DNA of 64,000 nucleotides, taken from NCBI GenBank assembly GCA_964618165.1, contig CAZTWW010000001.1, positions 499-64,498 of the forward strand, in the 5' to 3' direction. This stretch comes from an uncultured Candidatus Saccharibacteria bacterium (GTDB lineage: Bacteria > Patescibacteriota > Minisyncoccia > Phycocordibacterales > UBA918). Under the pieces are notes generated by a model. The model had not been told where the DNA came from. It saw only the letters and a program-made list of their open reading frames with translations, and did no database searches. Below, piece by piece: positions 13,440 to 56,590 of the stretch. Within the stretch, counting starts at the first letter, position 1. The number at the start of each line of letters is the position of its first letter. The position numbers and the translations under genes were made by a program.

Positions 13440-13442
13440 TGT

Positions 13443-14651
13443 ATGCGTGTCCAGGATCTTGCTCAGCTTTCAACTCGAATGTTTAAGACGAACCCGCTTC
13501 GTACCTGGCTTACTATTCTTGGTATGGGAGTCGGGACGGGTGCGGTAGTTATTCTCGTCGGGCTTGGATTCGGGCTTCAGCAGATCATTCTTGAGCAGAT
13601 TGTGTTCGGTGAGACACTCCTCTCACTTGGTGTATCAGCCACCGGCGCGCAAAATCTCCGCCTTACTACCGAGACCGTCACGCAATTTGAAGAAATGCCA
13701 GAGGTTCTCGACGCTGCTCCGCTGGCACGCTTCCCGGCCCTCGTAACCTATAAGGGGCTGACTGGTAACGTGTTTATTCAAGGAGTAGAACCACCATACC
13801 TTCGGTATGCTGGTGTTTCCGCGACTGCTGGTGAGGTATTTACCGATGTTGATGCAGCTGATACCAGCAGTGTAATGCTGTCGCCGGCGGTATTAAAGCT
13901 CTTCGGGATTGAAGACGCAGAGAGTTTTGTGGGGGAGAAGGTGTCATTTCGTATACTCATTCCGGCAAATGATGGTACCGGCAACAACAACGAGGTGATT
14001 ATCGATAAAGAGTATACCGTTCGGGGTATCACGAAGGAGGAAGGTGTCCTTAATGCCATGATGATGCTCCCTGAACTCCGTAATTATGTTGGTATTGAGG
14101 AATTTGAGCGTATTCAGGTCCGTGTCGATACGAATGAAAATCTACCGATTGTCGAGACAAAGCTTATTGAGGAAGGGTACCGCGTGACTGCGCTCTCAAA
14201 GACTGTTGAACAGGCGTCAAAGATTTTCCAGGGTATTCAAGCAGTTTTGGCGACATTTGGTGGTATTGCCTTAGTGGTGTCGGCGATTGGTATGTTTAAC
14301 ACGATGACGGTGACACTCCTTGAGCGTACCAAAGAGATCGGTATTATGCGTACTATTGGTGCTTCTCCGAACGATGTAAAGTATCTCTTCGTGTCTGAGT
14401 CGGTAGTGGTAGGCTTTTTGGGTGGGGTGAGTGGGATAGTTATGGGGGTAGGACTTGGACTCACTATCAATCTTTTTTTGAATATTGTGGCGGGGCAGTT
14501 CGGTGGGCAAGCGGTAAAGCTCTTTTCATTCCCACTTGGGTTCTTGCTCTTCATTGCCCTCTTCTCAGCGGCGGTGGGGTACTTGACCGGTATCTTCCCA
14601 GCTCGTCGGGCCGCCAAGCTCAACCCGCTTGATGCGATTCGCTACGAATAA
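13443..14651 (+). CDS. ABC transporter permease, FtsX/MacB-like (402 aa)
   Basis: Starts 4 nt after the ATPase stop. It has an N-terminal TM helix, an extracytoplasmic domain of about 230 aa and three C-terminal TM helices, which is the FtsX/MacB topology. Confidence 0.8.
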   Translation: MRVQDLAQLSTRMFKTNPLRTWLTILGMGVGTGAVVILVGLGFGLQQIILEQIVFGETLLSLGVSATGAQNLRLTTETVTQFEEMPEVLDAAPLARFPALVTYKGLTGNVFIQGVEPPYLRYAGVSATAGEVFTDVDAADTSSVMLSPAVLKLFGIEDAESFVGEKVSFRILIPANDGTGNNNEVIIDKEYTVRGITKEEGVLNAMMMLPELRNYVGIEEFERIQVRVDTNENLPIVETKLIEEGYRVTALSKTVEQASKIFQGIQAVLATFGGIALVVSAIGMFNTMTVTLLERTKEIGIMRTIGASPNDVKYLFVSESVVVGFLGGVSGIVMGVGLGLTINLFLNIVAGQFGGQAVKLFSFPLGFLLFIALFSAAVGYLTGIFPARRAAKLNPLDAIRYE

Positions 14652-16605: not shown

Positions 16606-16648
16606 TGCAATGACCACCGTTATCCAAACGGTGGTCATTGCTTTTTAT
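16606..16648 (+). terminator. Intrinsic terminator after the 624-aa gene
   Basis: Hairpin GCAATGACCACCGT-tatccaa-ACGGTGGTCATTGC followed by TTTTTAT. Confidence 0.7.
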
Positions 16649-16677: not shown

Positions 16678-17631
16678 ATGAAGGGAATTCTTCAAACGTC
16701 GCTACTACGTTCTTTGTGTTTGGTTGTTTTGTCGACAGTGGTCTTTTGGCCTGCCACAACTTTTGCCAGCTTTGGTATTACGCCTCCTTATGTACGCAAT
16801 ACGAGCCTGACCCGCAACTCTACCTACGAGCAGCAAATTCTTTTAGTACGGGGGAATCCTAACGAAGACCTGCGCGCAGAAATTACTATTGATGCACCAG
16901 AGATTCAGGACTGGATTGAGGTGGTAGAAGGAAACAATATCTCACTCCCTCGTGGTGAACAGAAGGTGCCAATGACCGTTCGTATTAAGGTCCCGGCAGA
17001 CGCAGACTTTGCAGACTACATGGGTAAGATCCGTATCCGTACGCTTCCAACTGATGAGGCTGCGGCTGAGGGTGTGGTGAGTATTAGTCTTGGTGCGCAG
17101 GTTGATATTGATCTATCAGTTATCGATAAGGTAATCGAAGATTTTCGAGTTCGAAAAATTACTATTAACGATCTCAATGAAGGTCGTAAGCTCGGCTGGC
17201 TCTATTTCCCGGGTAAGATTAATTTCGGCATGCTGATTGAGAATACCGGTAATGTTGACATCGCGCCGTCTAAGGTTGAGTTCCGCATCTATGACCGAGC
17301 TGGAGCCGTTCTCCTTGAGACCACCGAGCATACCGGCCGCATCAAAAAGATTGCTCCGTATGCGATTGAAGAGGTGACTGCTAATCTGCCCACTCGTCTT
17401 CCGGCCGGTAGTTACATTGCTCGTTACTCAATCTTTAATGGAGATGAGGTTAAGCAGGAAGGTGAGCTTAATTTGAGTATTCTTCCATACGGTACACTCC
17501 AGACTGCCGGGTACGGCTTCATGGGGCTCTCAATTGCGCATAAAGTATCTATCCTATTACCAATCTTTGCGCTTCTCATAACTATTCTGTACATTATCCA
17601 TAATCGACGCAGTCGTAAGACGCGAGCGTAG
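16678..17631 (+). CDS. DUF916-like cell-surface protein (317 aa) with N-terminal signal peptide and C-terminal TM anchor plus basic tail (paralog 1)
   Basis: SD GAGGGA precedes the ATG. Signal peptide LCLVVLSTVVFWPATTFA. The C-terminal TM helix ILLPIFALLITILYII is followed by HNRRSRKTRA. It is paralogous to the ORFs at 32972 and 33933. The architecture matches DUF916/WxL-interacting proteins. Confidence 0.7.
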   Translation: MKGILQTSLLRSLCLVVLSTVVFWPATTFASFGITPPYVRNTSLTRNSTYEQQILLVRGNPNEDLRAEITIDAPEIQDWIEVVEGNNISLPRGEQKVPMTVRIKVPADADFADYMGKIRIRTLPTDEAAAEGVVSISLGAQVDIDLSVIDKVIEDFRVRKITINDLNEGRKLGWLYFPGKINFGMLIENTGNVDIAPSKVEFRIYDRAGAVLLETTEHTGRIKKIAPYAIEEVTANLPTRLPAGSYIARYSIFNGDEVKQEGELNLSILPYGTLQTAGYGFMGLSIAHKVSILLPIFALLITILYIIHNRRSRKTRA

Positions 17632-17635: not shown

Positions 17636-18742
17636 ATGCTCAGTCGCTTATTCTTCATTGGTATCGTACTCTTGGTGCCACCATTCACTGTATTTGGTCA
17701 GGAGATCTACACTGCCACTACTACTATTAATCTCAGTATCTGTGGTAATAACGTGGTTGATACTGGTGAACAGTGTGATGTGCCGGGTGAGACCGGTCTA
17801 TACAGTACGACTATTGCTGGGCGACAGTGTAACGCACGGTGTGATTATGGTCCGTATTGTGGTGACGGGATTCTCCAGACTACATTTGGCGAAGAGTGTG
17901 ATGACGCGAATAATGACAGTGGTGACTTTTGTTCGGCTACCTGTACGATAGAGCCTGCTGGTTCTGGTGGAGGCGGTAGTTCTGGCGGTGGATCGGGTGG
18001 TGGTGGTTCAACCCGTGACTTAGGGGACACCTCAATTAGCGTGACCGGTCTTGGGTATCCAAATCAGCAGATCAATTTTCTCCTTGATACGAGAGCGGTA
18101 GGTTCCGTGCGGGCAAATAGCACTGGTCGTTTTGAATTTTCGACTAAAGCTTCTCCTGGTACCGCAACACTCGGTGTCTGGGCAAATGACTCAACTGGTG
18201 TTCGTTCAATTACGCTCAATAACACCTTTGATGTGACACAAGGTGCAGTGACTAATGTTAATGGACTTTTATTGCCGCCAACGTTGACACTCTCAAACAA
18301 TAAAGTTAGCCCTGGCAGTACGGTGACGATTAGTGGTCAAGCCGTTCCAAGTGCTCAGATTGAAATCCAGGTAGGAAACAGTAGTCTTCGCACGGAACGG
18401 ACGACGAGTGACGCAACGGGTCGCTATACGTTCCAGTTAAATACCTCCACGCTCCGTAATGCCGAGTATCCGATAAAAGCGCGATCAATCACTGGTACCG
18501 CGCCACTCCTCACGCAAAGTGGATATAGCTCGATTGCACAGCTATTTGTTGGTGTTGATGGTGCGCCGAGTTCACCGTCTGACTTGAGTCGAGACGGTAA
18601 GGTAAATCTCACCGACTTTTCGATTCTGATTTTCTGGTGGCAATCGGCCGGAGGTGATTCAAATCCGCCAGCTGATATCAATGGTAACGGTCGGGTGGGG
18701 TTGGAGGATTTTTCTATTCTCCTCTTCAACTGGACCGGCTAG
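17636..18742 (+). CDS. Secreted protein with Myxococcus-type Cys-rich repeats (DUF4215-like), Gly/Ser linker, Ig-like region and C-terminal dockerin-like domain (368 aa)
   Basis: Signal peptide. Cys-rich repeats CGNNVVDTGEQCD... and CGDGILQTTFGEECDDANNDSGDFCSATCTIE. Linker GSGGGGSSGGGSGGGGS. Two C-terminal dockerin repeats, DLSRDGKVNLTDFSILIF and DINGNGRVGLEDFSILLF. Confidence 0.75.
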   Translation: MLSRLFFIGIVLLVPPFTVFGQEIYTATTTINLSICGNNVVDTGEQCDVPGETGLYSTTIAGRQCNARCDYGPYCGDGILQTTFGEECDDANNDSGDFCSATCTIEPAGSGGGGSSGGGSGGGGSTRDLGDTSISVTGLGYPNQQINFLLDTRAVGSVRANSTGRFEFSTKASPGTATLGVWANDSTGVRSITLNNTFDVTQGAVTNVNGLLLPPTLTLSNNKVSPGSTVTISGQAVPSAQIEIQVGNSSLRTERTTSDATGRYTFQLNTSTLRNAEYPIKARSITGTAPLLTQSGYSSIAQLFVGVDGAPSSPSDLSRDGKVNLTDFSILIFWWQSAGGDSNPPADINGNGRVGLEDFSILLFNWTG

Positions 18743-18763
18743 AGTCTATTAATTACCTCCATC

Positions 18764-18802
18764 TTCTTTGTTGTACTTCGGTAAATTGTCGTTCACCGTA
18801 CA
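18764..18802 (+). repeat. Conserved post-gene element TTCTTTGTTGT-N-GTTCACCGTACA (copy 2)
   Basis: Lies 22 nt after the stop of the dockerin gene. It aligns with 11923-11959. Confidence 0.6.
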
Positions 18803-19647
18803 GGAAGTACGCCTCACAACAATTTCCTCGTACGCCTCGAATCTGGGGCCACTTACTTGACTCTAAGTGTTACAATGGCGAATTTTCGCGAGTGAGGCCT
18901 ATTCCTAATGGCCTCGTCCGCGTCTCTGCCTTACCTCGCACTCTACCAGTAGGGACTATTGCGAATTCTCGCGAGTAATGCGACCCCCAAGGGAGTATTA
19001 TCCTCGTACTACCACTTTGTTTCTTAGATTACTATCTGTCCGCCTCGAATACAGGGGTATTTAGTGGAGTCTAAACTCGTGACTTAACTTTTGATAGGTT
19101 CGCTATCTTTTGTAACATCGACAGCGAAAGGCGTAGTAGTGACGGAAGGAGAGTGTCACTAGTAATCACCGACGTCATTTTTGTGAGGGGTGGTGATAAT
19201 GGCCGAAGCAGAAGTCTAATACTCCATAATTTCTCATAAAATGCTTTTCAAGTTGTGTCGCTCTAGTACAAATGACGGGATTGAAACGCTGTTACTGGTC
19301 ACGAATGGTCGACACTTTCTATTTCCTAAAATGAGAAAAAATTTCATAATCTAACCTTTCTACTGGCAAAATATATGCACTGCGTAAATCCTCACTATTC
19401 TCTCGTGTAGTTAAAAATATTTTTGTGTATAAGTTTCCGTTTCGTAACCTCTATCAAGCTAGAATGAATAAGTACTAATGTTGGAGGTATCTCTTTAATG
19501 ATACTGCTAGCTCCCACCACGGAATGCTAGGGCACAACAGCCAGTGTTACGGCATTAGTATGCCTGTCACTCACTATGGGGAAGTGGGGTGGAGACCACA
19601 CCTCTGAGCGATGCAGGGTCGCGCTGTGCGTTGTTGTACTCAATTAT

Positions 19648-19675
19648 TTGATATACAACAGTGCCAGGCTAATAC
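19648..19675 (+). promoter_or_regulatory. Candidate sigma70-type promoter for the 385-aa gene
   Basis: TTGATA, 16-nt spacer, TAATAC, then 12 nt to the ATG at 19688. Confidence 0.35.
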
Positions 19676-19687
19676 AACGTAGAGAAC

Positions 19688-20845
19688 ATGAGTAGAACGA
19701 ATTCAACGTTCGGACTACTCCAAGCAGTGGCCTTTGTAGTTGGCCTTGCGATTCTTATTTGGTCGCTTGGTTTACCTGCATTCCGTTTTGCGGAGGCCGC
19801 AAATGTCAGATTAGTCAGTGATACACTGTCGGATTCAGCACCAAGTGTGCCATCAAATCACACCATCTCATTTGTTACACCATCAGGTGTTGCAAACGGT
19901 GAATCTATTGTTATCAACTTCTCAGAAGGACCGTTTGTCCTCGGGGCAGTCGCATTTGATGACGTAGACATTCGTGATGATGGAACGGATCTGTCAGTGG
20001 CAGCAGGTTGTGGTGGCACTGAAGAAGTTGGGTTTTCAACCTCTACCAATCAGATCACCCTTCAGTTTTGTCCTGGCGACGGGGCTTCATTACCTGCAAA
20101 TGGTACAACCACTATTGAGATCGGAACCAACGCCACCTTTGGTGCAACTGGTAACGCTCAGCTCACTAACCCTGGTGTAGGCTCATACGAGATCAACATC
20201 ACGGCTGGTTCGCAGGATAGTGGTGCTACGCGAGTAGCTATCATTTCTCCAGTTGTCGTTACTGCTGCTGTCGATACGAGCTTTACCTTTACGGTAGCTG
20301 GTCTCGGTGGTACAGGTGATGTCAACTCGGAGCCGATCACTGGTACGAGTACCGCTACTACCATTCCGTTTGGTACATTGACTGCGAACACTGCATCAAC
20401 TGCAGCACAGCAGCTTTCAGTGGCCACCAACGCAAGTTACGGATTTGCAGTAACGGTACAGGTTGATCAGCAACTGCTCTCATCAACTGGTGCTGACATT
20501 GACGGATTTATCGATGGTGCCTACACGTCAACTCCGGTTGCGTGGCAACCACCATCTGGTTCAATTAGTAATGAGAATTCATGGGGTCACTGGGGTATTA
20601 CCACAGAAGACGCCACGCTCACTGCTGGTTTGACCGACCCATTCAATGCGAGTTCAACCGGGCAGCTCTTCGTATCTGCCTCGACAACCCCAGTTGAAGT
20701 GTTTCGACACAATGGTCCATCTGACGGTACTACCGCTAATATCGGCCGTACCCGCGTTGGATACAAGGTTGAAATTTCACCGCTACAAGAAGCCGGTGAT
20801 GACTACAATGCAACGCTGACATACGTTGCGACACCAGTGTTCTAG
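19688..20845 (+). CDS. Secreted protein (385 aa) with the shared WxL-like C-terminal domain
   Basis: N-terminal hydrophobic signal LLQAVAFVVGLAILIWSLGLPAFRFAEA. The C-terminus '...TIPFGTLTAN...WGHWGITTEDATLTAG...RTRVGYKVEISP...DDYNATLTYVATPVF' is shared with the other three surface proteins. Confidence 0.8.
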   Translation: MSRTNSTFGLLQAVAFVVGLAILIWSLGLPAFRFAEAANVRLVSDTLSDSAPSVPSNHTISFVTPSGVANGESIVINFSEGPFVLGAVAFDDVDIRDDGTDLSVAAGCGGTEEVGFSTSTNQITLQFCPGDGASLPANGTTTIEIGTNATFGATGNAQLTNPGVGSYEINITAGSQDSGATRVAIISPVVVTAAVDTSFTFTVAGLGGTGDVNSEPITGTSTATTIPFGTLTANTASTAAQQLSVATNASYGFAVTVQVDQQLLSSTGADIDGFIDGAYTSTPVAWQPPSGSISNENSWGHWGITTEDATLTAGLTDPFNASSTGQLFVSASTTPVEVFRHNGPSDGTTANIGRTRVGYKVEISPLQEAGDDYNATLTYVATPVF

Positions 20846-20881: not shown

Positions 20882-20910
20882 TTCCCCCCACCACGGGGGA
20901 TTTTTGTTTG
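20882..20910 (+). terminator. Intrinsic terminator after the 385-aa gene
   Basis: Hairpin TCCCCCCA-cca-CGGGGGA followed by TTTTTGTTTG. Confidence 0.8.
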
Positions 20911-20955: not shown

Positions 20956-21975
20956 ATGTTACGGATTGTTTTTGTCCTCGGACTCTTTCTTTGTGCGCTA
21001 CCCGCACAAGCTGCAACCCTATACATTGATCCACCACAACCAACCCTCAATCGTGGTGATGCCGTAACGCTCGCGGTGCGGGTTGATACCGATGAGGCGG
21101 CAGGTGAGTGTATTAATGCTATTGATGGTGTTATTACCTATAGTGATGGTATTAACCCGGTCGATATATCGCTTGGTGAATCAATTCTTCCAGTCTGGGT
21201 AGAACAACCAACCATCGATAAAGAGAATCGTCGCATCACGTTTGCCGGTGGTATTCCAAACGGCTACTGTGGGCGTGTTGAAGGCGATCCGCGGTTAACG
21301 AACGTTATTGCAGAACTCGTATTTCGGGCGCCTGGTCTTACTGTCGGTGGTGATGAGCCAAACAATACCGCTAGTGTTTCGTTTGCACCAGAGACGAACG
21401 TTTATCTAAATGACGGCTTTGGTAGCATTGCGCCATTATCGACACTTGGCGCAGAAATTACCCTGACACAAGCACTTGGTTCTGAAATTGTTGATGTGTG
21501 GCGTGAGGATATTAATGCAGACACGGTCCCGCCGGAAGAGTTTTCGATTACACTCGAACGTGATGAGTTTGCGTTTGAGCAGAAGTACTACATCGTATTT
21601 AACACCACTGATAAACAAACCGGGATTAGTCATTACGAGGTAATTGAAGAAGCCCCACAAGACGCTCGTCTCTTCTCATTTGGTGCCGCCACCGCTCCAT
21701 GGGAGCGAGCTCGTAGCCCATATGTGCTGAAAGATCAGACGCTTAAAAGCACCATACGAGTTCGGGCTATCGATAAAGCCGGTAATGAATACGTAGCCAC
21801 ACTTGCACCGCAGAATGCCAGTCGATTCTCGGTAACTGACTATATGTTGATTGGAGGAGCTACACTGCTCGCGGCCCTCATTATTGGTGTCACCGTATGG
21901 TTTGCTCGTCGCCGTCGCCGCAACATAGCGATGACTACCGGTGTAATGCCAGATGATAAGACAGATATCGTATGA
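20956..21975 (+). CDS. Membrane-anchored cohesin-like protein (340 aa) with signal peptide, cohesin-like beta-sandwich and C-terminal TM helix plus RRRRR stop-transfer
   Basis: I chose the internal ATG at 20956 (MLRIVFVLGLFLCALPAQA) because it lies just downstream of the terminator. Cohesin-like segment ATLYIDPPQPTLNRGDAVTLAVRV...INAIDGVITYSDGINPVDISLG...ITFAGG...VIAELVFRAPG. C-terminal TM helix LIGGATLLAALIIGVTVWFARRRRRN. Confidence 0.65.
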   Translation: MLRIVFVLGLFLCALPAQAATLYIDPPQPTLNRGDAVTLAVRVDTDEAAGECINAIDGVITYSDGINPVDISLGESILPVWVEQPTIDKENRRITFAGGIPNGYCGRVEGDPRLTNVIAELVFRAPGLTVGGDEPNNTASVSFAPETNVYLNDGFGSIAPLSTLGAEITLTQALGSEIVDVWREDINADTVPPEEFSITLERDEFAFEQKYYIVFNTTDKQTGISHYEVIEEAPQDARLFSFGAATAPWERARSPYVLKDQTLKSTIRVRAIDKAGNEYVATLAPQNASRFSVTDYMLIGGATLLAALIIGVTVWFARRRRRNIAMTTGVMPDDKTDIV

Positions 21976-23690
21976 AAAAGCTAATTGTTCTTACCTTTGT
22001 TCTTTTGAGTTTTTTGGTAGCTGATAGCGTGTTGGCTTCCACGCTCAGTCTCTCGCCAGCAACTGGCGTTTATACGACGGGTAGTACGTTTACCGTACGT
22101 GTTACTGTTAATACGAAAGGGGCGCCTATCAATGCGGCTGATGGTACGTTGTCGTTTAATCCGAAAGAGCTCCAGGTGGTGTCGGTATCCCGTGGGTCAT
22201 CAATTTTCAACCTCTGGACAACTGAACCAACCTTCTCAAATAGTGCCGGCACTATCTCATTTAGTGGCGGGTCACCGACTGGATACACTGGTAGCGGTGG
22301 TACGATTATGTCGGTTACGTTCCGTACTCTTGGAGCCGGCTCACCGCGGGTGAGTATGACCAATGGTTCAGTTCTCGCTGCTGATGGTCGAGGTACAAAT
22401 GTCCTCACAACGATGGGAAGTGGAGCGTATACGGTATCAGCTGTTGCCGACACCCCAATCCCTGAAGCAATTGTTGAATTTGTCCCGCCAGCGAATACTC
22501 CAGCTGCACCAAAAATCATCTCAGAGACCCACGGTGACGGTACGGGGTGGTCAAAAGAGCGTACCGCGCGACTCTCATGGACAGTTCCGGGTGATGTGAC
22601 AGCAGTCCGTACCCTGCTTGATGAAAATCCGACTTCAATCCCGACCAAAGTCTATGATTCACCAATTCGTGATATCACCATCGATGATTTGCCAGATGGT
22701 ATATCGTATTTCCATATACAGTTCAAAAACGATGAAGGGTGGGGCAGGGTAGCGCACTATCGACTGGCTGTTGACTCTTCAGCGCCACAAGGATTTGTCG
22801 TGATGTTGGCCCCTGATAGCAATCTCGCAAATCCGACCCAAACTCTTATCGCTACCACCACCGATACTCTTGGTGCCCCAATCAAAACCTTCAAGATACG
22901 AGTGAACAATGGTGAGGAGATTATCCAAGAGAATACTGCTGCTGGACAAATTAAGCTAGAAAATCTTTCGCCTGGACAGCAGGTGGTAGATGTGGAGGCA
23001 GTTGATGCAGCTGGCAACACGGTTGAGACCTCATTCACTTTTGAGATTGAAGCATTTGAGGCACCACGTTTTACTGATGTGCCGGCTATTGTTAATTCAG
23101 GAGTGATTCCAGTGATTACCGGAACCACAAGACCAAAGTCATCAGTTAAGGTTGTGCTGTCATTGGCTGGAGCGTCACCAATTGAGTACACGGTGACTGC
23201 TCAAGACGACGGAACCTTCCGTTTTGTGCCTGATGCAAAGCTAGTCGATGGTGTTTACAAAGTGTCTGCTCAAGCGACCGATGAGTTTGGCGCCATGAGT
23301 GAGTTGTCGAGTGAGATAAGCTTCGTTGTCCAGCCATCAGGGTTTGTACGTATTGGTGGTATCTTGATTAGCTTCCTCTCAATTATTGTGCCACTCATTG
23401 CACTCTTATTCCTCACTGCTTTTACTTGGTTCTTCTTCCTCGCTCGGTATCGTACCTGGCGAAGGAAGGTGGCGAGAGAAAGTGGTGAGGTGATGTCTGC
23501 ACTCCATGAGCAGTTTAGACAACTCTCTACGGTTATTGACGAACACGAAGAAAAGCTCCAGTCATCACGAAAGACTAAGAAACTCACTGCCGCCGAAGAA
23601 GCTCTCATCACTGATCTCCGTACTGTTCTGAGAGGTGCAGAGTCGGTAGTTGAAAAGGAGGTGAAAGATGTTACTGATTTAACCGATTAA
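21972..23690 (+). CDS. Membrane-spanning cohesin-like protein (572 aa) with N-terminal cohesin-like domain, Ig-like regions, TM helix and cytoplasmic coiled-coil tail
   Basis: ATGA start/stop overlap with the upstream gene. Signal peptide. Cohesin-like segment LSLSPATGVYTTGSTFTVRVTVNT...INAADGTLSFNPKELQVVSVS...SIFNLW...ISFSGG...IMSVTFRTLGAG. TM helix IGGILISFLSIIVPLIALLFLTAFTWFFFLA followed by RYRTWRRK and a charged helical tail. Confidence 0.65.
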   Translation: MKKLIVLTFVLLSFLVADSVLASTLSLSPATGVYTTGSTFTVRVTVNTKGAPINAADGTLSFNPKELQVVSVSRGSSIFNLWTTEPTFSNSAGTISFSGGSPTGYTGSGGTIMSVTFRTLGAGSPRVSMTNGSVLAADGRGTNVLTTMGSGAYTVSAVADTPIPEAIVEFVPPANTPAAPKIISETHGDGTGWSKERTARLSWTVPGDVTAVRTLLDENPTSIPTKVYDSPIRDITIDDLPDGISYFHIQFKNDEGWGRVAHYRLAVDSSAPQGFVVMLAPDSNLANPTQTLIATTTDTLGAPIKTFKIRVNNGEEIIQENTAAGQIKLENLSPGQQVVDVEAVDAAGNTVETSFTFEIEAFEAPRFTDVPAIVNSGVIPVITGTTRPKSSVKVVLSLAGASPIEYTVTAQDDGTFRFVPDAKLVDGVYKVSAQATDEFGAMSELSSEISFVVQPSGFVRIGGILISFLSIIVPLIALLFLTAFTWFFFLARYRTWRRKVARESGEVMSALHEQFRQLSTVIDEHEEKLQSSRKTKKLTAAEEALITDLRTVLRGAESVVEKEVKDVTDLTD

Positions 23691-23691
23691 C

Positions 23692-24375
23692 ATGACAGAA
23701 AAACTGACTACAAAAAACATCGCAATTACACTTATCACTGTTATCGTAATTACAGTTGTTGCATCACGCTATATCAAAGCTGAGGTGAGTGAAGCGCTTC
23801 GTGATACTGAAGACACAGTGCGTGGTCAAATTGCGATTCAAACTGAACGGGTGCGAACAATTGCTGACGCCACAAAACTCAATCAAGGTGACGATGTAGC
23901 AACGTCTCTCGTGCTTGATTGTTCTGGTGATAATCGTCTCAAGTTTGATAGGTTGCTTGATAAGTTATCTGCTGATATCACTCGAACCGAGCTACTTGAA
24001 CTCGATAGTATTTTTCCAGATTGTGCAAACTACACTGCTGAGATAAAAAACATCATGGCAGCACGTCTCTTGCAAGAAGTAGAAATATTTGATCAGCATA
24101 AACAGCTCCTTGATAAACTCCGTGTTGAAGATGAATCTGTTGCGGCTAAAATTGACTTATGGAAGCGTGTTGCCGAAGGTGAGCAGAACGCGGCAAAACA
24201 ATACAGACAGTTGGTCAGCTTACAACGAGATATTATTCGTACGCTACTGGCAGGTAAGTCCAAAGATTCAGCTGAAATTAAGGCAATACTCACACAAGTC
24301 ACTAATGTAAAGAATGAAATGACAGTTACCCGCTCACAAATTGAAAATGTCCGTGCCGAGCTTGCGGCTTTATGA
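23692..24375 (+). CDS. Membrane-anchored coiled-coil protein (227 aa), unknown function
   Basis: Starts 2 nt after the previous stop. N-terminal TM helix IAITLITVIVITVVAS. The remainder is heptad-rich helical sequence. Confidence 0.65.
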   Translation: MTEKLTTKNIAITLITVIVITVVASRYIKAEVSEALRDTEDTVRGQIAIQTERVRTIADATKLNQGDDVATSLVLDCSGDNRLKFDRLLDKLSADITRTELLELDSIFPDCANYTAEIKNIMAARLLQEVEIFDQHKQLLDKLRVEDESVAAKIDLWKRVAEGEQNAAKQYRQLVSLQRDIIRTLLAGKSKDSAEIKAILTQVTNVKNEMTVTRSQIENVRAELAAL

Positions 24376-25130
24376 TGCAACTTTTACGTACTATTCTTGA
24401 GAAACTAGCACCAAGCTTTTTTCTCCGTAATACGAAGACAATTCATTATGCATTCTCGCTCCTGCTTCTCATGGCATTTGCGGTGGGAGTGGCGAGCGTA
24501 GTTGGTTCAGAGCGAACGAGCATTCTCATTGAATCATCAGTAGAGACGGTAGTTGAGAATGATTTATTCTCAATTCGTGTCTATGCGGTGGCAACCACAC
24601 CGGTTAATGCGGTGTCTTTATCGATAGCGACACCATCAGAGTTTGTTGAGGTGATGGGTGTTGATAGAGGGGAGTCAGTTATCACCCTCTGGACGAATGA
24701 GCCAAAAGTTGAGGGTGGGGTAGTAACCCTCGAAGGCGGAACGTACCGCCGAGGTTTTGTAGGGAAACACCTGATCGCAACAATCAATCTAAAAGCAAAG
24801 AAGAATGGGCAGGCAACAATTGTAGCAACTGATGCTAATCTACTTGCGGGCGATGGGCGTGGGACGGTGGTAGCAACAGATATATCGAAAGCTAAACGTA
24901 GTCTGTCGATAGGAACAAAGTCTACCGACGGGGAACAGGTAACGTTTGATGCAGCGGTTGTTATTGTGACTGACCTTGATGGAGATGGAGCGGTCTCACT
25001 CAGTGATATATCTACTTTTATGGGAGAGTGGATACGTCAGAACAATCGCTATGATTTTAATAATGATGGAGCAATGACTTTTAAAGACTTCTCGATTCTT
25101 CTGGCTAACTACTTTAAGTCCGCCTCTTAG
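24372..25130 (+). CDS. Adaptor-like protein carrying both a cohesin-like and a dockerin-like domain (252 aa)
   Basis: ATGA overlap with the upstream gene. N-terminal TM/signal FSLLLLMAFAVGVASVVG. Cohesin-like segment FSIRVYAVATTPVNAVSLSIATPSEFVEVMGVDRGESVITLW...VTLEGG...LIATINLKAKKNGQATIV. C-terminal dockerin repeats TDLDGDGAVSLSDISTFM and DFNNDGAMTFKDFSILLANY. Confidence 0.7.
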   Translation: MMQLLRTILEKLAPSFFLRNTKTIHYAFSLLLLMAFAVGVASVVGSERTSILIESSVETVVENDLFSIRVYAVATTPVNAVSLSIATPSEFVEVMGVDRGESVITLWTNEPKVEGGVVTLEGGTYRRGFVGKHLIATINLKAKKNGQATIVATDANLLAGDGRGTVVATDISKAKRSLSIGTKSTDGEQVTFDAAVVIVTDLDGDGAVSLSDISTFMGEWIRQNNRYDFNNDGAMTFKDFSILLANYFKSAS

Positions 25131-25177: not shown

Positions 25178-25218
25178 ATGTGTACTGGAACTGTTGTATC
25201 ACCATCAGTCCAATTACG

Positions 25219-26757
25219 ATGAAACAAATACCAGCCCATACACAAAAAGTAACACTCACTACAGTGAGGCAGCCAATTGGTCTTTACCGTTTGGTATTTC
25301 AGAGTGTGTGGTCAAGTTTGTTCGTCATTCTCCTCATCACCTCTTTCTTCCTTCAGACATTTGAGCGAGCGCTCGCAAATGAAGTTGTCGAAGAGTCTGC
25401 TACTTCGCTGTCGCCACTCATTACTGACGACTTGATAGAAAGAGTTGAATCAGATGCGGTACCGATTGCGATAGAGCGTGCAGAAACACCAACAGAAGAT
25501 GTTCTGATACCACCAGAGATAACCGAAGCTGAACCGGTTAATCAACCGGATCCAACGACTATTCCGATTGATACTTCACCACCGCCACCACAGATTGAAG
25601 ATGGTAATTCAGTACCCGAATCGCCTCCTGATATAGGCACTACAACGCTTGACGAAACTCTGACAGAGGAAATCTCTCCAGAGTCTTTGCTCGTAGATAC
25701 TGGTACAAGTACGCCGACTCTGACCGTCGAAAGCGATCAAATGATTCAGTTTAATAAAAATAATTGTGTAGCCGTTGAGGATGGCTCATTCTACTGTCAA
25801 AAAGCCTCTACCTCGGTAGCGGTGGCAGATGAAGGCCTCTATAGTCTTCCGGACGCTGATGGTGATCTTGAGATTTACCTGAAGCGTGCTGGTGAACTTA
25901 CCCAGCTGACACAGAATACTGTTGATGACGCGTCACCGTATTACGATCCTGCATCAGATACGATTGTGTGGCATCGTGTTATAGATGAGCGGTATCAGAT
26001 CATGGTTATGGATGTAGCCTCTGGTGAGGAGACACAGCTTACCGATACTTCGACTAACAATATGGAGCCGTTTCGTTCGGATAACATAATTGTGTGGCAG
26101 CATTGGGAGAATAATGCCTGGCAAATTATGTTCTTTGATGGACAGACCATTGCTCAACTTACCGACACTGTTGAACACAATCTTGCACCGGTCGTCCGTA
26201 ATGGCTTGGTAGTTTGGCATCGAATCACGAATGGTGTGAAGACAATTGAGGTCTACGATATTTCCACCGCCTCCTTTATGACTATTGAAGATGAGGGTGG
26301 TGGAACGGTTACTAATCCGCGTATGGTGCTTGTGTTTGATTCGACTATGGATAACGGTGATACTGTGACAAAGGGCTATGACCTTGTCACAGGTGAGATT
26401 ACTGAGTTTGAAGCAGAACCAGCCCCACTACCAGAAGAAATTCCAACTCCTGATCCAATTGAGGAAGCGAGGGCACTAGTCCAGTCAAAGTCGACTGGTC
26501 GTGAGTCTGGTGAAAATATTGACACTGATTTAACTGGTTCTACAACGCCGATGATTGATCCGCCTATAGATGCCGTGACGTCAAGTTCAAGTTTCACAGC
26601 CGGAACAACATTAACACTTGACCTGAGTTCAGCGACGTCAAGTATAGTGACAGAGTTACCACAGGTAGCACCACTCCCTGCAGATTATATTACTGATGTT
26701 GTGATACCTCCGTATCAAGCGACATCTTCTCAGGATATCGATACTGTGGTGGAGTAG
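25219..26757 (+). CDS. Membrane-anchored protein (513 aa) with acidic Pro/Glu/Thr-rich linker and beta-propeller-like repeats (TolB/PD40-like)
   Basis: I chose the internal ATG at 25219. TM helix LFVILLITSFFL. An acidic linker of about 120 aa. Repeats of the form '..IVW[HQ]...~...QI...D..~G...QLTDT....~P.....' occur 4-5 times. Confidence 0.6.
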   Translation: MKQIPAHTQKVTLTTVRQPIGLYRLVFQSVWSSLFVILLITSFFLQTFERALANEVVEESATSLSPLITDDLIERVESDAVPIAIERAETPTEDVLIPPEITEAEPVNQPDPTTIPIDTSPPPPQIEDGNSVPESPPDIGTTTLDETLTEEISPESLLVDTGTSTPTLTVESDQMIQFNKNNCVAVEDGSFYCQKASTSVAVADEGLYSLPDADGDLEIYLKRAGELTQLTQNTVDDASPYYDPASDTIVWHRVIDERYQIMVMDVASGEETQLTDTSTNNMEPFRSDNIIVWQHWENNAWQIMFFDGQTIAQLTDTVEHNLAPVVRNGLVVWHRITNGVKTIEVYDISTASFMTIEDEGGGTVTNPRMVLVFDSTMDNGDTVTKGYDLVTGEITEFEAEPAPLPEEIPTPDPIEEARALVQSKSTGRESGENIDTDLTGSTTPMIDPPIDAVTSSSSFTAGTTLTLDLSSATSSIVTELPQVAPLPADYITDVVIPPYQATSSQDIDTVVE

Positions 26758-26826
26758 TTTCTCTACAATAAAAGCGTGGTCTCGTAACCCTGAACGTGCG
26801 AGAATAAAGGCATGTGGAGGTTTCCC

Positions 26827-29800
26827 ATGTCTTTTTTCTGTGACTGCAGGCGACCAGTGGCTTTGCTGTTGCTGGTGGTGACGTTTGGTCTCAATCTCAC
26901 TATTCTTGAGTATGTGACTTGGCCACAGTTCGCTGAGGCAGCGGTTGTAACGGTTGATGCCACCGTAAGTCTCGATGCTAACGCCTTTTTCTTTGGTGGC
27001 TCACAAACAGTTTTCGTTTCTGATCAGGTGGGGTATAAGTTTTATCCTGATAGTACCGGGCAGTGTGTGTATAGTAAAACCACTAATGGTGCAGTGAGTT
27101 GGAATACTCCTGTTATTGTGGATGCGCAGACTGACTGCGCCAGTATTTCTGTATGGTATGACCAGTGGACACCAAATGATTACGGTACTTATATCCATAT
27201 CGCAACTATGGATACAGCTGCTGCAACCGATCGTCTTTACTACAATCGCCTCGATACCACCAATGATTCATTACTCCTTGGTACTACTCCAGTGGTGACG
27301 AGTAGTAACTCAGGCCAAGGCGGTACGTTTGTGTCTGGTACCAATAGCGTAACTGTTACAAAGAGTACCAGTAATGAAGTGTTCATGGCTGTCTCAGATG
27401 CAACTGATTCGTTTGTGGTTCGCTGTTCTACAAACTGTAACTTGACCACTGGCTGGACCGAAGCGGGGACGGCCTTTATGGACCTTGATAATGATTGGAA
27501 TATACTCATGCCCGTTTCATCTGGCGGTGTACTCCTCATTAACCGCGACATTAGCCTTGATGATATCAGATCACGCTTTTGGAATGGTTCGTCGTGGTCA
27601 GTGAGTTGGACTAATGTCGATACGAATGCAGTAGAGAATGCGACCTATGACGTGAGTATGGCAGCGGTAATTGATCATACCAATGGCGACATTTATCTAG
27701 CCTATGGAGCCGATCACGATAACTACACGACCCTCGACCACGACATCCGTACGGCTAAGTTTTCTTCTGGATCTTGGACTGGTACGACAGCTGTGTTTAC
27801 TAATCGTGCGCTCCGTGGACTCCATACCGTTGCGATTGCACTTGATACCAATACGAGTACTGTCTATGTTGCATACATCCTCCGCACGACACCAGGCACC
27901 GCGACGACCGGTAACGTGTACTGGGCTACATCTACCTCAGCAATGTCTGCCTGGAGTGCAGAGCGTGGACCAGTTAATATCACCGCTGGAGATCTTCGTG
28001 GACTTGACCTCAACCTCATGAGTGATGAGCGTATCTATGTGACGTGGCAGGACCCGGCTCCAGACGATATCTTTGGTGAAACTTTAGCAGATATTGCACC
28101 AATAACGAAGTTGACTGCAAGTGGTACCCCAAGTACGACCATTGTTGCGAGTACCAGCAATGCGTATGTGGGTGGTAAGTTTGTTATACGTGAGAGTGTC
28201 ACAAGTCGTAATTTGACCGATATACTCTTTACTGAACGTGGGACTATAGCGGCTGATACAGCGCTCGCAAATGTGCGCTTGCGCTATGACCTTGATACGA
28301 CCGCGCCATATGATTGTGCGAGTGAGTCATATGCTGGTACCGAACCACAATACGGCCTTACCGATACCGATGGCTTCTCAAGCACTAACGGTACTGTCTC
28401 GTTTGCTGGGCTCGTGAATATTTCTCCAACCCAAGCCTTTTGTGGGTATGTTGTACTCGACGTGCTTGATAGCGCCCTTGATGGAGATACGCTAGCGATA
28501 TCTGTTGAAACGCCGAATACTCACGTACTGGTGACTGGGGGTGTACTCGTGTCTCCAGCTGGTCCAGTTCGGTTTGCGACTTCAACCTTAATTCAAAATG
28601 ATGAGTTGACCCAAACCAGTTACCATTGGCGTAATGACAATGGTACTGAAGCTGCGGCTACCTCAGCTACTGGTGGTATAGCGAATACTCCGATTGCTGC
28701 GATTCTTCCTAATGTACCCCGTCGACTTCGTCTTCAGGTCTCAAACGAGGGTAGTCTCACGAGTCCAGCGACCGCCTTTCGTCTTGAGTATGCAGAGGCT
28801 ACTCCAACCTGTGATGGAGCAACTGGATGGACAGACGTTGGGGCAACGAATGATGCCTGGAATATGTCACTCTCAGCTAACCTCACTGAAGGAGCCAATA
28901 CAACCAATATCGCAGTGGCAACTGGAGGTGTGGCTGATGAGAATACTACTTTCCTGACCCCGAACGGTGGTGTTCGAGAGTCCTCGTCTCAAACTGGTTC
29001 ATTGACGTTATTAAACACTAACTTTGTTGAACTTGAGTATTCTATCGTGGCGTCAACCTCAGCCTCTGAGGGGTCGACGTACTGTTTTCGAGTTACCAAT
29101 GCCGGAACACCTCTGCCGGTATATACCCAGTATCCGGCTGCTACCATTGCGGCGGACGTGTCGGTCTCTGCCAGTGGCACCCAAGCGACATCACTTGTAA
29201 TTCCTTCAACGGTACAACATGTTGGAGGACAGTTTGTACTTCGTGAAAATACCAGTAATCGTAATATTACGAGTATTATGATTACAGAGAATGGTACCGT
29301 TGACGGTGCTGTTGGTTTAGATAACATCCAGCTCCGCTATGATCTTGATACCACCGCACCGCAAAACTGCGCGAGCGAAACCTATGCTGGTACTGAGGCG
29401 CAATTTGGAGTAACTGATACAGATGGATTTTCGGGTGCTAATGGTACGTCAACCTTTACGGGTACATTAGCGGTTTCAACTACTTCCACCGTCTGTCTCT
29501 ATGTGGTATTTGATGTAACCGGCTTGGCAGTAAATGGTGAGACGGTACAAATCGAAATTAATTCACCGGCGAACGATGTACAGGTGAGTACCGGTTCGGT
29601 GTCACCATCTACACCAATAGCACTCGCTGGTACGACAACGCTTGCTGGTGCGGTGATGACCCAAACTGGCTACCATTGGCGTAATAATGACGGTGGTGAA
29701 GCTACTTCGACTTCTGCCACAGTAGGGACAGAAAACACTATATTAACAGAGCATCTTGCGAACAGCCCAATCCGTCTTCGTTTAGCACTCTCAAATGAAG

Positions 29801-32800
29801 GTGCTGCTACATCTGTTGCATCCACCTACCGTCTTGAGTTTGGTCCACGGGTAACAACGTGTGATGCAGTGAGTGTCTGGACACCGGTCGGTGATGCGGC
29901 TGATGACTGGAATATGTTTGATTCGCCAGCGCTCATTAATGGTGCAAACACGACAAATATCGCTGTCGCTACTGGTGGAGTTACTGATCCAAATCCCACA
30001 TTCATTGTTGCTAATTCCGGTGTTCGTGACACTACTTCCACATCGTCGAGTCTCACTATCAGTACGACCGAATTTGCTGAGCTTGATTTTAGTATTACCT
30101 CGACGAATATCACCGCCTTTAATACAACCTATTGTTTCCGACTCACGGCTGAGGGTCGTCCGCTTCAGACCTATACACAGTATGCGCAACTCACGACCGC
30201 ACCGAAGCGTGACTACAAAGTGCAACGGGGTGTGACGGTGGTCGCGGGTCTGACGCAGACACTTACGGCTGGTGTTGATTACACTGCACCGAGTGCGTCA
30301 TCAACCGCATTTGTGCGCATTACTGATACGCATCATACCCCGCCAGGACGCACCACTGCTGGTGGTGGTGCACAAAACGCTGACGACTACACGGCCTACA
30401 TCAGTAATCCAACGAATATCACCACAAGCTTCACTATCTCGCGCCCACCAGCAGCGACGGGTAACACTCGCGTGACCTGGGAAATAGTCGAGTTTATTGG
30501 TGATGCTGGTACGGATAACGAAATGATTGTTCGCGGTGGTGGTGCAGTGAACTTTGCCTCCGCATCGACGAGTGCAACTGGTACGACAGTCTCTGGTATA
30601 GCCGATGATGCTGATGTGGTCGTCTATATCACTGGAATAGAGAACCGCGATATCGCGCGCAACCTCTTTTATGCACAGCAAGTGACCGCTGAGTGGGATG
30701 CGACAAATGATAGACCAATCTTTCGTCGTGGAGCCGGTGGAGCGATTATTAATGTTAGCTATGCGGTGGTTGAGTACACGGGTATAAACTGGCGCGTGCA
30801 ACGGGTCGAGCATACGTATGCCTCATCGACTGTAGTAGAGACAAAGCCAATCGATCCAGTAAATAGCTTAGCTCGTACCTTTATTCATACCCAAAAGCGC
30901 ATGGGGGCACTTGGTAACGTCAACAACTTTGGTCACGAGGTCTGGTTATCGAGTATAGGACAAGTGTCGTTCAATCTTGAACCAGCAGCTACTACTCCAA
31001 CTGGCCATGTATCGGTAGCGTGGGTAATTGAGAACCAACAAACGAGTGCTGGTGCCATGAAAGTGCAGCGTACCAATGGTACGACAAACGCGGGCACTGA
31101 GCCGGTAACACTAAGTATTTCACTCTTTACTCCGATTGAGTCAACTAATAATGCATCTATCTTCGGTATGTCGCGAGTAGTTGGTGCGAACACTAACTTC
31201 CCGCTTGTAAATGCTGGTCTTCGTATTACCGGCACCTCTACGTTTGAACTGTGGCGTAGTGAGGCTTCCGCTGAAATGACCTACCGAACAGAGGTGGTCG
31301 AGTGGCCAGTGAGTGGGCTTGCAGTGCGCCAAAACTACTATCGTTTTTATGTTGATAATAATGCACTAACGCCAGCTGATCCATGGCCACCTGGTCCTGT
31401 TGATGTTGGTGAAAATAGTCCGATTACGGCACTTGATGAACCACTTGGCGAGAGTGAGGTTGTGCGCCTCCGAATGTCACTACGAGTAGCTAACGCTATT
31501 TTGCCTGCTGGTCTTTATGATTTTAAACTACAATACGGCCTCCGAGTGACGTCTTGTAGTAGTGTCGGGACCTGGACTGACCTTGGTGCAGCCGGTGGTT
31601 CTGGTGCATGGCGCGGCTACGCTGCTACTGGCACTACCGATGGCACAGCACTCAGTATTAATCCACCTGATAGTGGCGACTTGCTCATTTCTGTCTCAGA
31701 TAGAGCTGGTAGTCTTGAGGAAGAGAATCAAAGTCCAGCTAACCCATATTTGGTTAACCCAGGAGAGGACCTCGAGTATGACTGGTATGTGCAACATAAC
31801 GGAGCGCTTTCTCGTAATACATACTGTTTCCGCATGGTTCGTAGTGATGGAACTCCACTCGATGGCTACCTCAACTATCCGCAGCTTCGTACTGCTGGGT
31901 ACGCACCTCAAACTAAAAATTGGCGCTTTTACGAAGATGCAGAACTTGAGACACCACTTTCACCACTATCTAGTGAAAATATCTCACCAATTGAAATTCA
32001 AAATCAAAACGTGATTGCACTTCGTGTGACGGTCGGTGAACGCAAGAATGTAACTGGGCAGAATGTGAAGTTCCGATTGCAATACGATGAAGATCCGAAC
32101 TTCACCAATCCAAAAGAGTTAGCAGCTACCTCGACCTGTACTGCTACCTCCACCTGGTGTTATGCCGATGGTGGTGGGGTAGATAATGCGACGATTACCA
32201 CTAAGGTGCTCTCAGACGCCGATTCATGCACAGCATCAGTTGGTAATGGCTGTGGTACGCACAATGAGAGTCCAACGTTTGTTCCAGGCTTTACCCATCA
32301 GCCAAGTGCCAATAAAGAGTTTGCCTTTTATATCCGTCATGCGGCTGCTCGTGCTGGTGCGGTCTACTACTTTAGACTGTATGAAGTGTTTGAAGACGTC
32401 CCTGTCCCGGTCGCGAGTGGGGAAGTTACACCAAGTCTCGTGGCAGAGACAGCTAAGCTCACACTTACGATTAATGGGCTTCCAAGTGGTACCACGACCG
32501 CAGGTATTACGACTACTGCTTCCTCAACGCCATCAACGGTGGCATTTGGCTCACTGCCGCTCAATACCGATGTGTATGCAGCGCATCGGATTGCGGTGAC
32601 GACGAATGCCACGGAGGGCTATCGGGTATTAGCATTTGCTCGGCAACAGCTCCTTAATGTGTATGGTACAGCGATTCCATCGGTGACCGGTACTAATGCG
32701 GTACCAACTGCGTGGTCGGTCGGTTGTAGTTTGAGCGCGTCTGGTTGTGTTGGGTACCACGCAACTGATGCTGTCCTTTCTGGCGGCTCAACCCGCTTTG

Positions 32801-54309: not shown

Positions 54310-54331
54310 TCTTCTCATTCCACTACGACAG

Positions 54332-54340: not shown

Positions 54341-54346
54341 GGAAAT

Positions 54347-56550: not shown

Positions 56551-56590
56551 AAGCAGTTGCAAGTCCGCTCATTATGATCAATGATCAGGA

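Follow-up and report, generated by a model that had tools for sequence, protein, structure and literature searches.

A probable membrane-tethered cohesin-dockerin set in a conserved surface-protein locus of Paceibacteria

Four adjacent genes, P5 to P8, together with the nearby gene g07, probably encode a cohesin-dockerin set of the non-cellulosomal kind, from which a Paceibacteria (Patescibacteria/CPR) cell would build a protein platform tethered to its cytoplasmic membrane, on the outer face. The set is most likely a plug-and-socket kit for the assembly of cell-surface proteins and not for cellulose digestion; the modules of the locus would pair with each other. The genes P5-P8 form the core of a strictly syntenic locus of approximately 15 genes, located at about 10.4-35.6 kb of the window (the whole 64-kb stretch of DNA that was analysed), and almost all products of this locus are surface proteins without annotation. 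Positive for the locus were 378 species-level Patescibacteria genomes (GTDB species), and both gene set and gene order were kept in 83 of the 83 loci examined; the locus is among the most conserved large gene clusters of Paceibacteria. An initial annotation had described a four-gene operon plus one outlier, a description that did not hold because the genes are embedded in this larger syntenic arrangement.

All four genes lie on the forward strand: P5 at 20956-21975 (339 aa), P6 at 21972-23690 (572 aa), P7 at 23692-24375 (227 aa) and P8 at 24372-25130 (252 aa). Direct reading of the sequence identified ATGA overlaps at the P5/P6 junction (gtATGAaa at 21972) and at the P7/P8 junction (ttATGAtg at 24372), which suggests translational coupling at these two sites, and a 1-nt gap between P6 and P7 (TAA-c-ATG, 23688-23694). 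The overlaps reported initially were thus correct, whereas the reported gap of 2 nt was not. P7 had been counted as one of four cohesin- or dockerin-like genes; P5, P6 and P8 retained this assignment, but P7 carries neither module and did not fit any family in Pfam or NCBIfam. Anchored by an N-in signal-anchor helix (flanking charges +1.7 and -0.4), it is a type II membrane protein whose ectodomain of about 200 aa is helical. The ectodomain contains two cysteine residues, C76 and C110, that are invariant among the orthologs, and is probably disulfide-bonded. Relatives carry a gene of the same size at the P7 position.

In P5 and P6, both type I membrane proteins, a distal N-terminal cohesin is borne on a stalk of one (P5) or three (P6) Ig-like domains. 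In P5, the signal peptide is followed by a divergent cohesin (residues ~20-175, nt 21013-21480) with the invariant cysteines Cys52 and Cys105, an Ig-like domain (residues ~190-285), a C-terminal TM helix (nt ~21838-21903) and an Arg-rich cytoplasmic tail. P6 consists of a signal peptide, a cohesin (residues 22-158, nt 22035-22445), three Ig-like domains, one of which is a Big_13 domain (Pfam, E 9.1e-15), a TM helix (nt ~23352-23441) and a conserved tail of about 80-90 aa (nt 23442-23687) with the motif SRKTKKLT; this tail, initially proposed to be a coiled coil, is cytoplasmic by charge. More than 1143 homologs of P6 were found, and the best 120 are full length at an identity of at least 50%. 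The TM helices, which had been proposed to follow the cohesin in both proteins, are supported by hydropathy and positive-inside charge in 45 orthologs each.

The cohesin of P6 matched Pfam Cohesin (PF00963) over model positions 10-130 of 139 with E 5.9e-9 and 36.7 bits, above the gathering score of 24.1. P5 gave no Pfam Cohesin match, and one of its 38 orthologs did (E 0.008); the P8 protein of the window likewise had no match, and 12 of 40 orthologs matched (best E 1.4e-7). The membership of P5 and P8 is therefore based on homology to P6 and on fold. BLASTP connected P5 to P6 (E 6e-15), P8 to P6 (E 8e-12) and P8 to P5 (E 2e-4), and comparisons between family profiles of the cohesin-like domains yielded 99.3% (E 2e-20) and 98.9% (E 3e-17). 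The motifs INAIDGVITY in P5 and INAADGTLSF in P6 were read from the sequence, and the three paralogs have INA.DG, S.F.LW..EP, GG.P.GY.G and DG.GT in common. The fold is a nine-stranded jelly-roll beta-sandwich superposable on solved cohesins. Together, these results bear out the N-terminal cohesin-like domains first proposed for P5 and P6; structure comparison found cohesins and not an unrelated Ig-like family.

P8, a type II membrane protein, combines a membrane-proximal cohesin (residues 48-183, nt 24513-24920) with a C-terminal dockerin (residues 198-250, nt 24963-25121) on a short, variable linker. Its N-in TM anchor (nt ~24447-24512) is indicated by an N-flank charge of +3.6 in 45 orthologs and by a helix spanning residues 23-42 in the AF2 model (pLDDT 82.9). 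P8 is thus membrane-anchored and not the free adaptor it was first taken for, and with this anchor all four products P5-P8 are membrane-tethered; their ectodomains are all predicted on the outer side of the membrane. The top matches of the P8 model in a Foldseek search against the PDB were all cohesins (4dh2_A, E 4.5e-9; 2vo8, TM 0.83; 2xdh, TM 0.81). In the dockerin region the model contains two long helices (210-222 and 237-251) and a short one (225-227) with pLDDT 81-86. The Ca loops DLDGDGAVSLSD and DFNNDGAMTFKD are both recognisable in 74 of 75 orthologs, 70 of them with the strict pattern and 4 with one substitution; the exception, ortholog L047, is truncated after the first loop. Against Pfam Dockerin_1, P8 scored 20.9 bits, just below the gathering score of 22.9, and 35 of 40 orthologs matched at E<0.01 (best 5.8e-6). 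Other searches gave NCBIfam dockerin_GC (E 1.3e-4) and, as the best single-sequence match in the PDB, the dockerin 2y3n_B. A cohesin-like domain and a C-terminal tandem dockerin are accordingly combined in P8, as had been suggested.

The second dockerin belongs to g07 (17636-18742, forward strand), a secreted protein of 368 aa in which a signal peptide, a Cys-rich acidic repeat (DUF4215 / myxo_disulf_rpt), a Gly/Ser linker and Ig-like domains precede the C-terminal module. Matches were obtained to DUF4215 (E 3.8e-7) and Big_7 (E 1.8e-6) in Pfam and to myxo_disulf_rpt (E 5.9e-11) in NCBIfam. The C-terminal dockerin previously assigned to this Cys-rich protein was confirmed by a score of 23.6 bits against Dockerin_1 (PF00404), above the gathering score, and by two F-hand Ca loops, DLSRDGKVNLTD and DINGNGRVGLED, within the module (residues 312-368, 18569-18739, forward strand). 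A syntenic ortholog of g07 is present in 53 loci, and both loops are recognisable in all 53; across the g07 and P8 orthologs, some deviate from the strict pattern by a single substitution. The nearly invariant module is the most conserved of the locus (mean pairwise identity 0.86), as expected for an interface. When the coding frames of these proteins were scanned with a regular expression for the 12-residue Ca loop (D-x-[DN]-x-[DN]-G-x-[IVM]-x-x-x-[DE]), exactly four loops were recovered, at 18581 and 18674 in g07 and at 24972 and 25053 in P8, the same four as quoted initially. The duplicated 12-residue Ca loop plus helix of dockerin F-hands, in a module of approximately 60 residues, was thus found in the C-terminal repeats.

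This leads to the question whether the two module types bind each other. It is unlikely, in our judgement, that they do not pair, with the cohesin folds being beta-sandwich heads, carried on membrane stalks, that have a structural role or bind a ligand (for example, peptidoglycan, glycan or a host surface) and the C-terminal modules as generic EF-hand-type Ca-binding stabilisers. The P8 family profile gave a slightly lower E-value with Entamoeba EF-hand Ca-binding proteins (4e-5) than with a dockerin (4e-4), and EF-hand_1 was matched by 39 of 40 P8 orthologs. Many non-cellulosomal cohesin or dockerin modules are, moreover, reportedly without known partner. The divergence of P5 beyond the reach of Pfam Cohesin, the P8 dockerin score under the gathering threshold and the tally of three cohesins to two dockerins in the locus would likewise count against pairing. 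However, the loop starts are spaced by 31 residues in g07 and 27 residues in P8, and this loop-helix-loop-helix arrangement without an entering E-helix fits dockerin F-hands and not EF-hand pairs. Furthermore, both module types occur together in one tightly conserved locus and neither is found elsewhere in the 64-kb window; the extreme conservation of the g07 dockerin and the motifs kept across the three cohesin paralogs also argue for pairing.

A polysaccharide-degrading role would make the set a minimal cellulosome-like complex, which is hardly credible here despite the presence of cohesin and dockerin modules. Domain searches covering the proteins of the locus and window detected no glycoside hydrolase, as noted initially, and likewise no CBM, lyase or carbohydrate esterase domain. 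Dockerins are carried only by the Cys-rich/Ig-like g07 and the cohesin protein P8, and each cohesin carrier has a single cohesin, with no multi-cohesin scaffoldin. The cellulosome is thus effectively refuted for the window. Like the cellulosomal scaffoldins of C. thermocellum (OlpA/OlpC/SdbA) and A. cellulolyticus (ScaA/ScaB), the proteins described here present cell-bound cohesins that would capture dockerin partners; P8 resembles adaptor scaffoldins in having both modules, and its top Foldseek match, 4dh2, is the OlpC cohesin. In contrast to these scaffoldins, anchoring is by TM helices and not by SLH domains or sortase, only one cohesin is present per protein, enzymes and CBM are missing, and the 'adaptor' P8 is itself membrane-bound. 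Also among the closest known systems are the non-cellulosomal pairs represented by the Archaeoglobus fulgidus cohesin (2xdh) and the Clostridium perfringens toxin/glycosidase modules (2vo8, 2jh2, 2w1n). Unlike these, the present set has cohesin carriers that are integral to the membrane, some as type I and some as type II proteins, and dockerin carriers that lack enzyme domains, and it lies inside a conserved Patescibacteria surface-fibre locus. A non-cellulosomal cohesin-dockerin set is thus of a known kind, whereas its surface-fibre-locus context is previously undescribed.

That context includes two further secreted proteins with a shared module. The 385-aa pilin-like protein g08 (19688-20845, forward strand) matched the CPR Pam pilin C-terminal domain (NCBIfam NF058581) with E 2.5e-6 and 27.6 bits, below the cutoff of 55 and over model positions 3-40 of 148; 17 of 22 orthologs also matched at E<0.01, and the profile of g08 gave nothing significant against the PDB. 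The whole of g08 is homologous to the C-terminal 387 residues of the 2052-aa protein g14 (26812-32970, forward strand; hhalign of g08 1-385 against g14 1666-2052, 99.4%, E 4e-21), which had no match in Pfam or NCBIfam. Three other secreted proteins, g06 (16678-17631, forward strand; two domains), g15 (~32983-33958) and g16 (33933-35564), are WxLIP/DUF916-like paralogs; g06, the one examined for it, has a C-terminal TM anchor. By hhalign, g06 is related to g15 with E 2.8e-49, and g16 to g15 and g06 with 99.7% and 85%, respectively; the similarity to g06 lies in the N-terminal part of g16, a protein that comprises WxLIP_PGBD (a marginal 27.4 bits, gathering score 27.3) and LytR_C. Sequence searches with this family gave no PapD match. 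Always syntenic and 83-85% identical between loci is a MacB/LolCE-type ABC transporter (12117-14651, forward strand) consisting of a 440-aa ATPase and a 402-aa FtsX/MacB_PCD permease. It matched ABC_tran, MacB_PCD and FtsX in Pfam, and its best NCBIfam matches, DarD, LolD, FtsE and MacB, were all below cutoffs.

WxL or Csc clusters of Firmicutes encode small and large WxL proteins plus a DUF916/WxLIP membrane protein, and the small g08 and large g14, with their common C-terminal module, are similarly encoded with DUF916/WxLIP-like membrane-anchored proteins. In contrast to such clusters, no Pfam WxL domain was found, with E up to 1 for g08 and up to 0.01 for g14, and no LPXTG protein is present. 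We know of no WxL cluster with a cohesin-dockerin set. The Pam pilus system, known from the CPR groups Saccharimonadia and Microgenomatia, works by donor-strand exchange and comprises the pilins PamA/B, the membrane-anchored PapD/FimC-like chaperones PamC/D and the anchor PamR, with no cohesin, dockerin or ABC component reported (bioRxiv 10.64898/2026.03.03.709456). Shared with it would be the nature of a CPR-specific surface-filament locus in which the pilins are exported by Sec and the accessory proteins are anchored in the membrane, among them paralogs with C-terminal TM helices (as in g06); the suggested link to Pam pili rests on the partial, sub-threshold model match of g08. The 2052-aa protein, the MacB-type transporter and the cohesin-dockerin set are additions of the present locus.

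The likeness to Pam raises the possibility, which we regard as quite improbable, that the proteins with cohesin folds anchor and assemble a pilus or fibre, in the manner of PamR or an usher-like platform, and engage g08/g14 by beta-strand complementation, with a minor role for the dockerins. P5, with two beta-sandwich domains and a C-terminal TM helix, shares its gross layout with PamR; the genes lie directly downstream of g08 and of a terminator-like GC hairpin with T-run (20883-20900, forward strand, from a consensus scan), and chaperone-like membrane-anchored paralogs are encoded in the locus. Yet the predicted models are complete, confidently folded cohesin sandwiches and not truncated Ig folds in need of a donor strand, P5, P6 and P8 have no detectable homology to g08, and two strictly conserved dockerins would be left unexplained.

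For the favoured cohesin-dockerin platform, the two Ca-dependent dockerins would plug into the cohesins, expectedly at the 8-3-6-5 sheet by which cohesins bind dockerins. The g07 dockerin may tether g07 non-covalently to P5 and/or P6, and that of P8 may cross-link its carrier to a further subunit with a cohesin, so that a hetero-oligomeric platform would form. As the four genes always lie within the same 15-gene locus, this platform would most likely serve the surface fibre or adhesin apparatus encoded there and be unrelated to polysaccharide degradation. Its task could be to keep the accessory protein g07 at the base of the fibre, or to anchor and organise the assembly site. The membrane-anchored surface-assembly system envisaged initially is thereby retained with respect to modules, anchoring and absence of enzymes, and revised with respect to the free adaptor and the self-contained operon. 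More tentatively, the locus could encode a new surface-filament machine of Paceibacteria. Its Pam-like donor-strand pilins would be g08 and the giant g14, assembled with WxLIP-like chaperones of the membrane and a mechanotransducing ABC transporter of the MacB type, and the P5/P6/P7/P8 cohesin-dockerin platform would fasten the filament base or the accessory adhesin g07 to the membrane.

Three cohesins and two dockerins make six module pairs, so that the wiring of the complex is approachable without culturing the organism; pairs orthogonal to the clostridial ones would enlarge the set of components for designer protein assemblies. Among uncultured ultra-small bacteria, Paceibacteria rank with the most abundant. 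The locus broadens cohesin-dockerin biology to include carriers anchored by TM helices in a setting that resembles a pilus system and, if the filament machine proves true, would hold the first cohesin-dockerin modules integral to pilus or fibre biogenesis.

The four plus-strand genes P5 (20956-21975, 339 aa), P6 (21972-23690, 572 aa), P7 (23692-24375, 227 aa), and P8 (24372-25130, 252 aa) were read directly in the sequence. The ATGA start/stop overlaps described in the initial annotation are present at P5/P6 and P7/P8, but its 2-nt gap between P6 and P7 is a single base (TAA c ATG). After P8 come ~50-90 nt without a gene, and a terminator-like hairpin with a 6-7 bp GC stem and a T-run (20883-20900) lies directly after the pilin-like gene g08 (19688-20845), ahead of P5. 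Because of the overlaps, the 1-nt spacing, the flanking hairpin, and the downstream gap, P5-P8 look like a single translationally coupled block. This hairpin would yield high expression of the pilin and low expression of assembly factors, a pattern typical of pilus operons. Another terminator-like hairpin, with a 15-bp stem (16607-16641), follows the gene of a 624-aa protein upstream.

P6 matches nearly the whole Pfam Cohesin model (E 5.9e-9, 36.7 bits, gathering score 24.1), and also matches Pfam Big_13. P5 and P8 gave no Pfam Cohesin match as single sequences; both are paralogous to the N-terminal domain of P6 according to BLASTP (E 6e-15 for P5, 8e-12 for P8) and to hhalign of their family profiles against P6 (99.3%, E 2e-20 and 98.9%, E 3e-17, respectively). 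Single-sequence and profile HMMER searches of the PDB sequences with P5, P6, and P8 did not detect cohesins, the sole scoring region being the dockerin/EF-hand part of P8; a fold comparison was needed. Ortholog alignments (A1-A3) were built, and P8 and P5 were modelled by AlphaFold2 (pLDDT 82.9 and 80.1). The top-ranked Foldseek matches of the P8 model in the PDB were cohesins, including two non-cellulosomal ones, 2xdh from Archaeoglobus fulgidus (TM 0.81) and 2vo8 from Clostridium perfringens (TM 0.83). By the Pfam match of P6, the paralogy, and the Foldseek matches of P8, the cohesin-like domains first proposed for P5, P6, and P8 do not fall into an unrelated Ig-like family. The second domain of P5 is Ig-like and homologous to one P6 domain, and the P5 cohesin has two invariant cysteines in the ortholog alignment. 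For some of these proteins, the automatic annotation already reads "cohesin domain-containing protein."

A six-frame search for 12-residue Ca loops returned exactly four loops of interest, at 18581, 18674, 24972, and 25053, the same that had previously been quoted as dockerin loops; the sole extra match is unrelated and lies inside a helicase gene. Against Pfam Dockerin_1 (gathering score 22.9), the Cys-rich secreted protein g07 (17636-18742) scored above the threshold with 23.6 bits and P8 just below it with 20.9 bits. The P8 orthologs matched Dockerin_1 in 35/40 cases, Cohesin in 12/40, and EF-hand_1 in 39/40. Among PDB sequences, EF-hand Ca-binding proteins and a Bacteroides cellulosolvens dockerin receive similar scores from the P8 family profile, so that dockerin and EF-hand are inseparable by sequence alone. 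The arrangement is loop-helix-loop-helix, with 27-31 residues between loop starts and no entering helix, and the AlphaFold2 model of P8 has two long helices and a short one in this region; both the spacing and the modelled helices are consistent with a dockerin. The module is kept in all 53 g07 orthologs of expected length and in 74 of 75 for P8; one P8 ortholog (L047) is truncated after the first loop. Both loops follow the strict pattern in 40/53 g07 and 70/74 P8 orthologs, the others being one substitution off. In a domain-wise comparison the g07 dockerin was the most conserved module of the locus, and with only 13 common loci this comparison is not discriminating for which dockerin suits which cohesin.

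For each protein, hydropathy and the charge of the helix flanks were averaged across 45 orthologs. In P5 and P6 the TM helix is C-terminal and its cytoplasmic flank is strongly positive (+3.9 and +4.2), as expected from the membrane anchoring originally assigned to them; in P7 and P8 a signal-anchor helix lies at the N-terminus, preceded by a positive flank (+1.7 and +3.6). Helix positions and flank charges therefore predict that all four proteins are membrane-bound with outward ectodomains. P8, initially regarded as an adaptor with both module types, is by its N-terminal anchor a membrane-anchored cohesin-dockerin protein and not a soluble adaptor. The cytoplasmic tail of P6 (~80-90 aa) is conserved (SRKTKKLT.AE ... 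VEKE..DV). P7 carries neither cohesin nor dockerin and has a helical ectodomain with two invariant cysteines; it represents a family without known domain that has an N-terminal anchor and is always encoded between cohesin genes. Searches of Pfam and NCBIfam with the proteins P5, P7, g01, g05, and g14 gave no match apart from DUF2341.

With module identities and predicted membrane topologies established, the cohesins and dockerins co-occur and are strictly co-conserved. The Ca-loaded dockerins of g07 and P8 would bind the cohesins of P5, P6, or P8. Such binding would tether secreted g07 to the membrane and cross-link the membrane proteins into a platform serving the fibre/adhesin apparatus of the locus. 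That cohesins and dockerins do not pair at all, and act as structural and Ca-binding modules, is rather unlikely in our judgement.

More than 1100 relatives of P6 were found, and the best 120 are full length at 50-73% identity and, where named, belong to Paceibacteria, Kaiserbacteria, Pacebacteria, or Patescibacteria. When each GTDB species was scanned through one genome, 378 genomes were positive, and the 80 loci retained are all from Patescibacteria MAGs. The gene order is identical in 83/83 loci examined, as far as each contig extends: fn3 protein, ABC ATPase, FtsX/MacB permease, 624-aa protein, g06, g07, g08, P5, P6, P7, P8, g13, g14, g15, and g16. Thus, the four genes are linked as first described, but by this shared order they form the core of a ~15-gene, ~25 kb syntenic locus (10416-35564) and not a self-contained system. 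Upstream of the locus lies the gene of a 3412-aa protein with DUF2341 (168-10406).

The ABC pair (12117-14651) is of the MacB/LolCDE/FtsEX mechanotransmission type. No other part of the locus is as well conserved: the pair is 83-85% identical across loci, its neighbours ~50%. About 200 residues of the 440-aa ATPase lie outside the ABC domain and match no family. The gene after P8, g13 (25180-26757, true start probably the ATG at 25220), gave weak matches to TolB-like beta-propeller repeats in NCBIfam (E 1e-6 to 1e-7, below cutoffs); the N-terminal half of its product is long, acidic, rich in Pro, and of low complexity.

Secreted g08 (385 aa) gave a partial, sub-threshold match to the NCBIfam C-domain model NF058581, "CPR Pam pilus system pilin subunit" (E 2.5e-6, 27.6 bits, cutoff 55), which recurs in 17/22 of its orthologs. 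In g14 (26812-32970, 2052 aa), the final 387 residues are homologous to g08 in its entirety (E 4e-21). Together with the pilin-model match, this suggests a putative filament with one major subunit and a giant one acting as tip or adhesin. The secreted proteins g06 (16678-17631), g15 (~32983-33958), and the N-terminal part of g16 (33933-35564) are paralogs; g06, the one examined for TM helices, has a C-terminal anchor by hydropathy and charge. The g15 ORF start as listed (32747) overlaps g14, and the real start is probably after 32970. g16 has a marginal WxLIP_PGBD/DUF916 match and LytR_C at its end, and g06 orthologs gave just scattered weak Ig-like matches in Pfam. Profiles of g08 and g06 found nothing significant in the PDB; a CfaE fimbrial match (E 0.66) was too weak to count as evidence.

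The Pam pilus is known from a 2026 cryo-EM study of a Saccharimonadia bacterium; its two-domain pilins are linked by donor-strand exchange, PamC/D are membrane-anchored PapD-like chaperones, PamR is a membrane-anchored two-domain terminator, and homologs occur mainly in Saccharimonadia and Microgenomatia (bioRxiv 10.64898/2026.03.03.709456). Cohesin, dockerin, ABC transporters, and Paceibacteria go unmentioned in that paper. Given the pilin-model match of g08 and the g06/g15/g16 paralogs, the locus may be a distant, larger relative of this surface-filament system, a weak link drawn from sequence. Possibly g06, g15, and g16 correspond to the Pam chaperones, which are membrane-anchored, or to the WxL-interacting proteins of Firmicutes. 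The cohesin-fold proteins might be pilus anchors working by strand complementation, which we consider quite improbable.

The g07-g08 gap (18743-19687) is non-coding and 945 nt long, unusual for compact CPR genomes, with a median of 526 nt in 53 relatives; it probably serves as promoter or leader for a gene with high expression. Over the last ~270 nt of the gap, identity to the closest relatives is ~79%, and this stretch showed no significant structure (z -1.25) and no Rfam match. In related genomes, further intergenic spacers of the locus contain a ~56-nt piece of the gap (18872-18934) at 79-86% identity (860-915 and 2485-2540 in L001), which may be a small repeated intergenic element. Elsewhere, a low-GC patch (54000-56600, 0.395 against ~0.48-0.50 outside it) contains a Schlafen group 3-like DNA/RNA helicase gene (54691-56550, Pfam E 8.7e-92) that may be a horizontally acquired defence gene, and a tRNA lies at 51564-51636.

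A mini-cellulosome, hardly credible to us, is ruled out for the window because no carbohydrate-active enzyme domain occurs anywhere in it, in line with the lack of glycoside hydrolases already reported. Literature searches on cohesin/dockerin with CPR, Patescibacteria, or Parcubacteria found no account of the locus and no paper on such modules in surface systems of Patescibacteria; what they returned were surveys of rumen and biogas and a paper on giant genes in Omnitrophota. Non-cellulosomal cohesins and dockerins have long been known. What sets the present case apart is the anchoring of cohesin carriers by TM helices, a membrane-bound protein with both modules (P8), a dedicated non-enzymatic dockerin cargo, and the placement of the cohesin-dockerin set in a pilus-like locus that also encodes a MacB-type transporter.
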